Virus record (IMG/VR): IMGVR_UViG_3300028182_000001
Span: 94,404 to 158,403 of that record
Direction: 5' to 3' (one strand)
DNA length: 64,000 nt
From: a virus
The notes below the pieces were generated by a model. It did not search any database. It was not told the origin of the DNA and worked only from the letters and a program-made list of their open reading frames with translations. Made by a program: the position numbers and the translations under genes. Below, piece after piece: positions 18,522 to 42,246 of this stretch. Every line of letters begins with the position of its first letter. Position 1 is the first letter of the stretch.

Positions 18522-18563
18522 AAGTACAAGAGATAACGAACAACATATCGAGGAGGAAACGAA

Positions 18564-27601: not shown

Positions 27602-28372
27602 ATGGCAAAGAAAATTGAAGCGGTAGAACGAGTAGGTACAGTAGGGGTAAATAGTCACGGGTCACGGATGGTAGTAGTATGGTACGAGAACAGTAAGAAA
27701 GTTATCGTACAGTTTGAGCAAGGTAACGTTGTACAAACTAGTTGGCAGCTGTTCATCAAAGGATCAGTAAAGAATCCGTACGACAAAACACTTCTTGGTG
27801 TAGGATACATGGGGTTAGGCCGCTATAGCTCTAAGACGGAGGATGGAGAAGATAACCCCATCTATTACACTTGGCTTCGTATGATGAGACGTTGTTACGA
27901 TGAGAATACACACAAAAGACAACCTGCGTATATTAACTGTATAGTTGATCCTGATTGGCACAACTTCCAAAACTTTGCAAAGTGGTACGAGGAAAACTAT
28001 TATGAGGTTGACGGAGAGACTATGTGCCTTGACAAAGATATACGTATTAAAGGTAATAAAGTATACTCACCTGATACATGTATCTTTGCTCCGACTCTCA
28101 TTAATAACCTGTTTATAACAAACGATAGTAGAAGAGGGGAGCTACCTGTAGGAGTCGTATACGATAAGAAACACGACAAATACATAGCGCAATATAGAAC
28201 TCCTCAAGGTAAACATTGGATAGGAAGATTCAAAACGGCAGAAGAAGCTTTCCTTGCTTATAAAGAGTTTAAGGAAGTTTATATAAAGAAGGTTGCAGAG
28301 GAATATAAGGGTAAAATACCACATACACTCTACAATATAATGATGACGTACAAGATAGAGATGACTGACTAA
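27602..28372 (+). CDS. HNH-type homing endonuclease with AP2-like C-terminus
   Basis: W..MMRRCY, WHNFQNFAKWY, LDKDI, GNKVYSP, IGRFKTAEEAF. Confidence 0.8.
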   Translation: MAKKIEAVERVGTVGVNSHGSRMVVVWYENSKKVIVQFEQGNVVQTSWQLFIKGSVKNPYDKTLLGVGYMGLGRYSSKTEDGEDNPIYYTWLRMMRRCYDENTHKRQPAYINCIVDPDWHNFQNFAKWYEENYYEVDGETMCLDKDIRIKGNKVYSPDTCIFAPTLINNLFITNDSRRGELPVGVVYDKKHDKYIAQYRTPQGKHWIGRFKTAEEAFLAYKEFKEVYIKKVAEEYKGKIPHTLYNIMMTYKIEMTD

Positions 28373-28412
28373 CTTTCCATCATTTTAGAAAAAAGTAAGA
28401 AAAAAGTGGAAA

Positions 28413-28441
28413 TAGACTTCTAAAAGTATGTATGATATCAT
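28413..28441 (+). promoter_or_regulatory. sigmaA-like promoter
   Basis: TAGACT-N17-TATCAT with TG extension. Confidence 0.6.
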
Positions 28442-28447
28442 AAAGAT

Positions 28448-28545
28448 AGGAGTATACTATAACTACAAAGTTATCGGATATACTCCTTTCCTCCTTACAT
28501 CGGAGGTTGGAGTAGAGACAGGAGACAACTAAATCTAAGGAGGAA
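28448..28545 (+). promoter_or_regulatory. Structured 5' leader with anti-Shine-Dalgarno
   Basis: Alternative hairpins; TTCCTCCTTA is complementary to TAAGGAGGAA. Confidence 0.6.
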
Positions 28546-28551
28546 TTTATA

Positions 28552-29103
28552 ATGACAGTTAAACAGTTAAGCTTAGTAAAATATGCAGGTGAATATTTTT
28601 GCACATTGGCAGACTATACGGAAACAAGAAGCACAGAGGGTTACTCAGATAGCGCATCGGTAAAATCAGCAGTTAGAACATTCGTAGTGAAATCAGATGC
28701 AACAAAATATATCTCTTTTAGAGGGGAAGCACAATTAAAGAATATCATCCAAGAGAATAAAGATAACCCTCACTTCCACGAAGAAGACTTCCGAGGGACT
28801 AGAATGGGTATCATCGCTTGGGATATGTTAGAGCCTTTAAATAACCGTTTCAAAGAGAATAAAGAATATAAAAAAGCATTTGCTCAGTTCATGAAAGAAG
28901 CTAATGATTATATAGAAGGACAACAAAGTAAAGAATCTTCAGATGCTAATGAAACTAACGACCCTACAGAGAGTCGTGCTATAGTAATACGTACATTACG
29001 ATCCGAGTTAAACCGAGTTGATAAAGAGATAGAAGTTCGTCAAATAAATAGAGAAAAGATTCTTCAGGCTATTAACGCATTGGAGAGTTTAGAAGTCGAA
29101 TAA
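28552..29103 (+). CDS. Hypothetical protein with C-terminal coiled coil
   Basis: 183 aa ORF with perfect RBS. Confidence 0.8.
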   Translation: MTVKQLSLVKYAGEYFCTLADYTETRSTEGYSDSASVKSAVRTFVVKSDATKYISFRGEAQLKNIIQENKDNPHFHEEDFRGTRMGIIAWDMLEPLNNRFKENKEYKKAFAQFMKEANDYIEGQQSKESSDANETNDPTESRAIVIRTLRSELNRVDKEIEVRQINREKILQAINALESLEVE

Positions 29104-29207
29104 AAGTAAAAGATTATGGTATAATTGAATAGTTACAGAATAGGGTTGCATTTTATGGTGCAACCCTTTATTATATTACTTATAGAGGGAGTTAAAGGAG
29201 GGTTACA

Positions 29208-29978
29208 GTGGTAGCTAAAAAAGGATTGAAGGACGAGAAGGTTGGCGTTAAAGTAGTTAGTACAGAAGGTTATACAATGGAGTGCGTTGACTACAATTCG
29301 TATACTGATATCACCGTTCGATTTGAAGATGGTCACGAAGTTAAATCTACTTGGCATAACTTCACGAAAGGAAGTATCAAGAACGTATATCACAAGTCTG
29401 TATATGGTGTTGGTTACATAGGTGAAGGTGACTACTCTTCAAAAGGTTACAGGACTCCGAAGTTTCCTATGTATCGGTCTTGGATATCTATGATGCGAAG
29501 ATGTTACAGTGATACAGATAATCCTAGAGATAGAGCATATAAACAATGTAGCGTTAACTCTATATGGCATAATTTTCAGAACTTCTGTCTATGGTATGAG
29601 TATAATTACTATGAGATAGAAGGAGAGACTATGTGTCTCGATAAAGATATACTGGTTAAAGGTAACAAAACATATGCACCGAAGACTGCTGTGTTTGTTC
29701 CTGAGTCAATTAACAAACTGTTCCTAACACGTAAGGACAAGAGAGGTCACTTACCTATAGGTGTGTACGAGAGACCAAATGGAAAGTTTGGAGCTTACCT
29801 GAGTAAGGGTGATAAGAGAGTACATCTAGGGTATTTCGGTATACCTCATGAAGCTTTCCTAGCCTACAAAGAAGCGAAGGAACAGCACATAAAGGAAGTA
29901 GCAGAAAAGTACAAGCACCATATTCCTATCAAGTTATATGACGCATTACTACGTTATGAGGTAGAGATGGATGACTAG
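29208..29978 (+). CDS. HNH-type homing endonuclease, paralog of 27602
   Basis: Same length and motifs (WHNFQNF, GETMCLDKDI). Confidence 0.8.
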   Translation: MVAKKGLKDEKVGVKVVSTEGYTMECVDYNSYTDITVRFEDGHEVKSTWHNFTKGSIKNVYHKSVYGVGYIGEGDYSSKGYRTPKFPMYRSWISMMRRCYSDTDNPRDRAYKQCSVNSIWHNFQNFCLWYEYNYYEIEGETMCLDKDILVKGNKTYAPKTAVFVPESINKLFLTRKDKRGHLPIGVYERPNGKFGAYLSKGDKRVHLGYFGIPHEAFLAYKEAKEQHIKEVAEKYKHHIPIKLYDALLRYEVEMDD

Positions 29979-42205: not shown

Positions 42206-42246
42206 TCTTCGCTTCCTCCTTTATAGTTGAATCATTAAGTTACCTG

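Follow-up and report, generated by a model that had tools for sequence, protein, structure and literature searches.

The DNA analysed here, a 64,000 nt stretch (positions 94,404–158,403 of IMG/VR record IMGVR_UViG_3300028182_000001; hereafter the window), comes from a phage of the genus Caeruleovirus (Herelleviridae, Bastillevirinae), a myovirus of the Bacillus cereus group with 97% identity to phage Bcp1 over the region of interest. This region holds a small unit on the plus strand, made up of a predicted promoter, a 5' untranslated region (UTR) of 104 nt, a gene for a 183 aa protein (28552–29103; phrog_5660, unknown function) and an intrinsic terminator (29142–29177). The 5' UTR, which runs from the predicted +1 at about 28448 to the ATG at 28552, is a real, conserved and previously unannotated cis-regulatory leader. 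We give about an even chance to the reading that it joins a 5' stabiliser hairpin to an anti-Shine–Dalgarno (anti-SD) tract acting as a translational brake on an early-type phage mRNA. A sequence-only reading of the same DNA had proposed a two-state RNA switch with riboswitch or toxin-leader logic, and this claim is partly supported.

The predicted promoter is of the sigma-A type, with a -35-like hexamer TAGACT (28413–28418) separated by a 17 nt spacer from an extended -10 element, TG-n-TATCAT (28433–28441), both on the plus strand. The hexamer is conserved in Caeruleovirus and Tsarbombavirus (TGGACT in PBC6 and BCP78). The extended -10 lies directly 5' of the 183 aa gene in all 30 relatives read, at a spacing of about 7 nt to a shared ATAG-type start in most of them; in SIOphi there was one additional extended -10, a chance match far upstream of the gene. 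Given this conservation in 30 relatives, we infer on good grounds that transcription starts near 28448, 7 nt downstream of the -10 element, which is where the sequence-only reading had put it. The terminator (11 bp stem in a hairpin at 29142–29167, U-rich tail, 86–98% identity in nine relatives) lies 3' of the stop codon, so leader, gene and terminator probably form a monocistronic mRNA of about 730 nt.

The leader and its default fold

The leader opens with a 5'-terminal stem–loop, hairpin A (28448–28487). Its outer arms (28448–28456/28479–28487) form 9 bp and are followed by a C-G/U-G step, an inner stem of 6 bp (28459–28464/28469–28474) and a 4 nt loop, giving a hairpin of 17 bp broken by two small bulges. 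Next comes the anti-SD tract (28488–28497), the exact reverse complement of the ribosome-binding site (RBS) region at 28536–28545, which contains the SD core AAGGAGG and ends six bases 5' of the ATG. Between these two lies a decoy GGAGG (28502–28506), SD-like but with no usable start codon, which is a local partner of the anti-SD core and forms the inner stem of an alternative hairpin B. A small hairpin (28505–28509/28526–28530) overlaps the decoy; its 16 nt purine loop carries AGGAGA (28520–28525), and it includes the outer partner of hairpin B (28509–28514). All of these elements are on the plus strand. Together with 28483–28490, the anti-SD tract presents what we take to be two tandem look-alikes of the Bacillus 16S rRNA 3' tail (CUCCUUUC, then CCUCCUU; 28483–28497). 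Counting these presumed mimics, the leader holds two rRNA-tail-like segments and five SD-like motifs. Hairpin A, the pairs of hairpin B and the anti-SD strings were all found where the sequence-only reading had described them, both on reading the sequence and with a repeat finder, which recovered the same inverted repeats and extended the anti-SD:SD pairing to 13 nt with one mismatch (92%).

When 28448–28560 was folded with RNAfold, hairpin A together with the anti-SD:SD helix was both the minimum free energy structure and the centroid (-32.1 kcal/mol, z -3.29), and this energy was equalled by 1 of 200 dinucleotide shuffles. Hairpin A itself has an energy of -15.5 kcal/mol compared with -4.5 ± 2.4 kcal/mol in shuffles where the hairpin must begin within the first five transcript bases, and none of the 200 was as good. 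Opening the SD core costs 7.0 kcal/mol; when the upstream leader was shuffled, 12 of 300 sequences came up to this value. The probability that the SD is unpaired was 0.000 in the window leader and 0.00 in eight distinct leaders of the main Caeruleovirus clade. The default state of the leader is firmly SD-closed, and the OFF state that had been proposed for it is borne out.

This arrangement is exceptional within the genome. With up to one mismatch allowed, the anti-SD 10-mer has 32 sites in the window; the minus strand holds 30, which are the ordinary SDs of plus-strand genes. The plus-strand copies are the leader, which is the sole exact one, and a one-mismatch site at 42213. Of 196 SD-led open reading frames (ORFs) in the 158 kb genome, a single one, the 183 aa gene, has an exact anti-SD of at least 9 nt in the 150 nt 5' of it (10 nt, followed by 8 and 6 nt in the next best ORFs), which places the exact complementarity pointed out in the sequence-only reading beyond chance. 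Extended -10 promoters precede 22 SD-led ORFs, mostly with leaders of 25–48 nt and no 5' hairpin; the sole 104 nt UTR with a strong +1 hairpin is the one described here (-15.5 kcal/mol; next -7.7 kcal/mol). Three extended -10 promoters, with predicted +1 positions at 18528, 19949 and 21157, have TTGACT as -35 element and near-identical leaders of 36–38 nt that carry GAUA-N10-UAUC just 5' of the SD, in contrast to the 104 nt structured leader. The conserved leader core was found once per genome and always at this locus in 13 IMG/VR contigs, and no second copy of the leader or complementary trans partner was found elsewhere in the genome.

The observed basis for a stabiliser hairpin joined to a brake consists of the folds and their excess over shuffles, the lack of a second such leader in the genome and an extreme degree of conservation, described below; the start site, the stabilising role, the effect on translation and any trigger are inferred. 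Host RNA polymerase would transcribe the unit as an early-type, probably monocistronic phage mRNA, and hairpin A, at its extreme 5' end, would shield the transcript from 5'-end-dependent decay. The pyrimidine tract 28488–28497 would pair with the RBS, giving low translation of the intact transcript by default. The purine-rich, SD-like middle (28502–28525) would remain single-stranded and be available to the anti-SD for alternative pairing; it is also a possible landing or stabilising site for 30S subunits, or a place where a protein binds. Relief of the brake would need outside input, the leader appearing to have no built-in ligand sensor.

Passages of PMC3997798 and PMC7509114 describe 5' stem–loops in Bacillus that protect mRNAs against 5'-end-dependent decay, and treat 5' stem–loops and SD-like stabilisers (aprE, ermC, the polypurine stabiliser of SP82 and the STAB-SD of cryIIIA) as established. 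Like these, the present leader has a 5'-end stem–loop followed by SD-like purine tracts with no start codon. Given the predicted start site, hairpin A resembles the aprE/ermC type in being stable and within a few nt of the 5' end. The sequence also agrees with that of a STAB-SD, in that no ATG or GTG follows GGAGG (28502–28506), GGAG (28509–28512) or AGGAGA (28520–28525), and the only TTG near them (28507–28509) abuts GGAGG at zero spacing. STAB-SD comes from the same host group (B. cereus/B. thuringiensis) and SP82 from the same phage family (Herelleviridae). However, the aprE, ermC, SP82 and STAB-SD leaders leave the real RBS open, whereas the present leader buries it in a perfect 10 bp helix.

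Three other ways of reading these elements were rejected. Hairpin A as an intrinsic terminator or attenuator does not agree with its tail (UUUCCUCC), was not called by a terminator scan and has no U-run in Tsarbombavirus. An RNA thermometer of the ROSE or fourU type is at odds with a perfect 10 bp SD duplex whose opening costs 7 kcal/mol at 37 °C. For translation attenuation of the ermC/cat type, there is no start codon 4–12 nt after any SD-like motif of the leader, and the annotated ORF of 34 aa is unconserved and starts 5' of the +1.

Conservation and comparison with relatives

Over 28391–28540 the window is 100% identical to BCP8-2, which ranks first among 3741 sliding 150 nt segments (40 kb aligned, mean 84%). 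Identity within the main Caeruleovirus clade is 100% for the promoter and 96–99% for the leader; third codon positions of the gene show 52–74% identity in most Caeruleovirus relatives and 88% in the two closest. The identity island is sharp (28400–28550) and is flanked by the 3' end of an HNH gene (86–92%) and by less conserved coding sequence. Among 16 distinct leaders, 28505–28528 is mostly invariant, the exceptions being 28515–28517, 28519 and 28521.

Those substitutions that do occur in Caeruleovirus are compatible with the fold. C-to-U at 28486, A-to-G at 28545 and A-to-G at 28537 keep pairing as G-U, which holds in plus-sense RNA only, and A-to-G at 28478 adds a new C-G pair. In hairpin A, three of three Caeruleovirus substitutions retain or improve pairing. 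The helix 28505–28509/28526–28530 is kept in both Caeruleovirus and Tsarbombavirus via two one-sided G-C/G-U changes.

Hairpins at the +1 recur in four further genus-level lineages, where their stem sequences are unrelated and their loops differ in size. Strong examples with stems unrelated to hairpin A were found in Deep Blue (-18.3 kcal/mol), Goe8 (-14.1 kcal/mol) and Mater (-15.7 kcal/mol), each matched by 0 of 200 shuffles, and in L050, an IMG/VR relative (-15.7 kcal/mol; 2 of 200); Bobb has a strong hairpin at or next to the +1. The leaders of phiNIT1, Goe3, BSP38 and Shbh1 (B. subtilis-type) and of Moonbeam (B. megaterium) are short and unstructured. An 8 nt exact complement of the SD–AUG spacer is found in the 3' arm of the +1 hairpin in the B. 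megaterium-type relatives Mater (L049) and L050, about 60–70 nt upstream of the homologous gene. Melting of that hairpin would hide the initiation region, the opposite polarity to the window leader.

Sequestration of the SD was found only in the two B. cereus-group genera and is achieved by different pairings. Caeruleovirus uses the 10 bp helix, which lies upstream of the SD and spans it. Tsarbombavirus has two pairings, CCUC with the SD core and a second segment with the SD–AUG spacer. Its leaders are 94–99% identical over the 69 nt that run from the 3' arm up to the start codon, and the opening cost is 5.3–7.2 kcal/mol in QCM8, TsarBomba and BCP78 (reached by 4–15 of 300 shuffles) and 3.6 kcal/mol, not significant, in MarvelLand.

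Several results weigh against the combination of a stabiliser hairpin and a brake. By opening cost, the 183 aa gene ranks eighth of the 196 ORFs and not first, the seven above it being ORFs of 52–87 codons. The 5' hairpin of Tsarbombavirus is weak and not beyond shuffles, and conservation of that leader is lowest in the 5' arm and loop. In the clade of Deep Blue, Thurquoise and Xoo-sp15, sequestration of the SD is largely lost (opening cost 1.3–2.6 kcal/mol, not significant). Here both the anti-SD and the decoy are mutated, the latter from GGAGG to GAAGG, and the opening cost drops because AGGAGA at 28520–28525 is now just as good a partner for the changed anti-SD. RNAalifold, run on the 16 distinct leaders from both genera, found no compensatory pairs, the leaders varying too little, and the covariation which the sequence-only reading had named as a check was not seen. 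Across both genera it retained only CUC:GAG and the small helix 28505–28509/28526–28530. Finally, near-100% identity exceeds what a simple hairpin and helix need, and further constraints may be at work, for example multi-state pairing, a bound factor or a role at the DNA level.

One record of the Deep Blue clade, L012 (MN364664.1), is named Xanthomonas phage Xoo-sp15 and carries the flag UNVERIFIED_ORG. Its taxonomy is Caeruleovirus and its locus has 80–88% nucleotide identity, which makes the stated host doubtful.

Alternative folds and the proposed switch

According to the sequence-only reading, the leader is a two-state translational switch. Hairpin A would lock the 3' arm and leave the anti-SD on the RBS (OFF), and loss or occupation of the 5' arm would allow hairpin B to form and free the RBS (ON). 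A switch of this kind would time or dose synthesis of the 183 aa protein during infection. We consider this possible though doubtful. The candidate triggers, namely cleavage of hairpin A by RNase III, RNase Y or trimming by RNase J1, a bound protein or a 30S subunit on the 5' AGGAG, are purely conjectural.

The logic is thermodynamically coherent. Hairpin B is formed by 28481–28486/28509–28514 and 28490–28494/28502–28506, and when the 5' end of the RNA was moved to 28457–28479 the SD became 20–48% open, since B (-16.1 kcal/mol) and the anti-SD:SD helix (-16.3 kcal/mol) are about equal in energy. The part of the claim that concerns accessibility of the SD after loss of the 5' arm is upheld by this rise (0.000 to 0.2–0.48). 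The part played by B is less distinctive, as about 10% of shuffles do as well: when the purine-rich middle (28498–28535) was shuffled, equal opening was seen in 28–36 of 300 trials, and B is therefore not clearly beyond what composition provides.

Mutual exclusion of the two hairpins holds for the full B state, which requires that A be melted and lies 13 kcal/mol above OFF in the intact RNA, but not for its inner stem (28490–28494/28502–28506). The best SD-open fold keeps hairpin A, with the anti-SD core paired with the decoy at 28502–28506, and is 7 kcal/mol above OFF. Since this stem forms with A intact, A and B are only partly exclusive. The inner stem is also broken in the Deep Blue clade. 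The decoy-paired fold is the first fold of the growing transcript, and a kinetic trap by the decoy hairpin was ruled out, the barrier to OFF being just about 6 kcal/mol.

For the switch speaks a rise in the probability of an open SD from 0.000 to 0.31–0.48 with the 5' end at 28457–28479, together with the near equality of B and the anti-SD:SD helix. Despite its different sequence, the 3' arm of Tsarbombavirus can still pair with the nearly invariant element downstream if one bulge is allowed, and among the SD-open structures of MarvelLand and PBC6 this B-like fold is the best. Near-total conservation is what multi-partner pairing would be expected to produce. Precedents are the lambda N leader and cIII mRNA (RNase III), the RNase III sites in SP82 early RNA and the 5'-processed tisB and zorO mRNAs. 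These points have to be set against the shuffles that equal B, the coexistence of its inner stem with A and the loss of that stem in the Deep Blue clade, and the energy of the B state in intact RNA. In addition, hairpin A has 17 bp with bulges and would be a short substrate for RNase III, a cleavage site of the lambda N type being a duplex of at least about 20 bp, and the 3' arm in Mater and L050 complements the SD–AUG spacer instead, which amounts to the opposite logic.

A more elaborate form of the proposal would make the leader an undescribed phage RNA device, in which the 5' hairpin clamps a 16S-tail-like anti-SD on the RBS until, at a set time in infection, the 5' arm is removed or occupied by a host RNase or by an RNA-binding factor of phage or host, and the RNA flips to the decoy fold and turns translation on. 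The 100% conservation would then be explained by each nucleotide having a part in two or more pairings. We hold this, too, to be a doubtful proposition.

The two classes of regulator named in the sequence-only reading were not borne out. An Rfam 15 cmscan of 27800–29400 with E up to 10 gave no match in 28373–28551; of the matches outside the leader, two (27945–28014 and 28612–28678) were chance ones of snoRNA type and the others, at 29033–29233, were weak and terminator-like. No aptamer core with covarying helices was seen, the leader having simple hairpins only, with hairpin A varying freely between genera. The lack of both an Rfam match and an aptamer-like core makes a metabolite riboswitch unlikely. 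Toxin-leader logic fares no better. The gene product is a soluble protein of 183 aa present in 111 records and not a small hydrophobic one (type I toxins being under 60 aa), and with respect to an antisense small RNA gene, no minus-strand promoter-like site was found in or next to the leader and no complementary locus elsewhere in the genome.

Known systems resemble the leader in part. As in the lambda N leader and cIII mRNA, the RBS of a phage early gene is occluded by leader structure; in those systems alternative folds or cleavage of an upstream hairpin set translation, and the present leader differs in host (that of lambda is Gram-negative), in sequence and in the 17 bp of hairpin A. The tisB, zorO and hok transcripts are similar in that the primary transcript is inert through pairing of its 5' end and loss of a 5' segment exposes the ribosome entry site. 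They encode small membrane toxins, whereas here the product is a soluble core phage protein of 183 aa and no antisense RNA gene was found. The rpoS-type leader and the 3' UTR of Staphylococcus aureus icaR (PMC3868564) likewise use a C/U-rich cis anti-SD that lowers translation and is relieved by a competitor. There, the competitor is a trans-acting small RNA or the anti-SD lies in the 3' UTR, whereas here the candidate competitors, GGAGG and AGGAGA, are within the same leader.

Post-transcriptional control has hardly been explored in large Bacillus phages (Herelleviridae), and no transcriptome or transcription start site map for any member of the Bastillevirinae was found in the literature searched. 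The leader is small (104 nt), its clear pairings are amenable to test and simple reporters would suffice. Should processing or a factor turn out to relieve the brake, the leader would be the equivalent, in a Gram-positive phage, of the lambda N and cIII paradigms, and also a compact building block for synthetic control in Bacillus. A leader that acts solely as a constitutive stabiliser and damper would be ordinary, though well made.

Possible bound factors or DNA-level roles, and the neighbouring genes

The conservation of 28505–28528 could also reflect a factor-binding platform, in which the GGAG/GGA motifs (28449, 28503, 28510, 28521, 28539 and 28542) and 28505–28528 are read by a protein or the 30S subunit and the hairpins merely present the motifs. 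Candidate readers would be the gene's own product, in feedback, another early protein of the phage, a host regulator of the CsrA type, or the 30S subunit through a standby or STAB-SD site. On balance we think it unlikely. Two genera whose leaders otherwise differ by about 40% share a mostly invariant 28505–28528, a segment that the default fold displays in loops and whose primary sequence is conserved beyond the needs of pairing, and there are three SD-like motifs without a usable start codon downstream. On the other hand, the gene product has no recognisable RNA-binding fold, AGGAGA is changed to AAGAGA in three of six distinct Tsarbombavirus leaders, and what we take to be only a partial match of the leader motifs to the CsrA consensus counts against a regulator of that type. 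STAB-SD, the closest parallel for a 30S site, was defined in B. thuringiensis, of the same host group, according to a passage of PMC3997798 that cites the work. A middle promoter of the SPO1 type at AGGAGA (28520–28525) was rejected: its distance from the T-rich box changes by 4 nt from one genus to the other, and three Tsarbombavirus leaders have AAGAGA.

The protein encoded downstream has homologues in 111 phage records, all from the Bastillevirinae, and matched no Pfam family. Its predicted structure (predicted local distance difference test score, pLDDT, 77) has a soluble alpha/beta N-domain followed by a coiled-coil hairpin and no membrane helices. A Foldseek search of the PDB with this model gave no match at E ≤ 0.001 and only weak uL10-like ones, and VIA-align wide returned only generic long-helix matches (Z ≤ 5.8) and no informative structural neighbour.

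Two paralogous genes for 256 aa HNH-AP2 proteins, which are homing-endonuclease-like, flank the unit (27602–28372 and 29208–29978). Relatives have none, one or both of them, or another HNH/AP2 gene at the downstream site, and this variable presence marks both intergenic joints as insertion hot spots. With such genes ending at 28372 and starting at 29208, the conserved island might act in the DNA, as an operator at the +1, a homing-endonuclease target or a recombination joint, with the RNA folds as by-products. The palindrome at the +1 and a second conserved island (29100–29150), which also abuts an insertion point, agree with this. We nevertheless regard a DNA-level role as quite improbable. 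The island is sharper than a co-conversion gradient, with 86–92% identity in the adjoining HNH 3' end, and it is identical in phages with and without the HNH insert. Stems and loop lengths of the +1 hairpin vary freely between genera, the substitutions are G-U compatible in plus-sense RNA only, and no minus-strand promoter or gene was found at the leader. A minus-strand gene that uses 28488–28497 as its SD was rejected, as there is no start codon 4–13 nt downstream on that strand.

An ORF of 34 aa (28428–28532) overlaps most of the leader, and it would be very surprising if this small protein were what the sequence encodes, with the pairing incidental. The ORF is open in the main Caeruleovirus clade and is annotated in four relatives (Kioshi_183, BCP8-2_142, BC-VP and PK16; the annotations lie at 1556–1660 in L002, 654–758 in L005, 656–760 in L007 and 656–760 in L011). 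Its ATG, however, falls within the promoter spacer, 5' of the predicted +1, and has no SD. A 1 nt deletion shifts the frame in the Deep Blue clade, a stop follows after five codons in Tsarbombavirus, and 100% identity at the nucleotide level, with no synonymous changes, is not the pattern of a coding sequence. Judged from these features of the sequence, the annotation is probably spurious.

The second conserved island extends over 29100–29180 (86–98% identity in nine relatives). The weak, terminator-like Rfam matches at 29033–29233 (mir-2804, sbrA and RsaF) were below threshold. The island contains an extended -10-like TG-n-TATAAT (29117–29125) between the stop codon and the terminator hairpin at 29142–29167, and a transcript starting at about 29131 would reach this hairpin about 11 nt in. 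Such a transcript could be a small RNA of about 45 nt or an attenuator, or could supply the next gene with a 5' hairpin leader.

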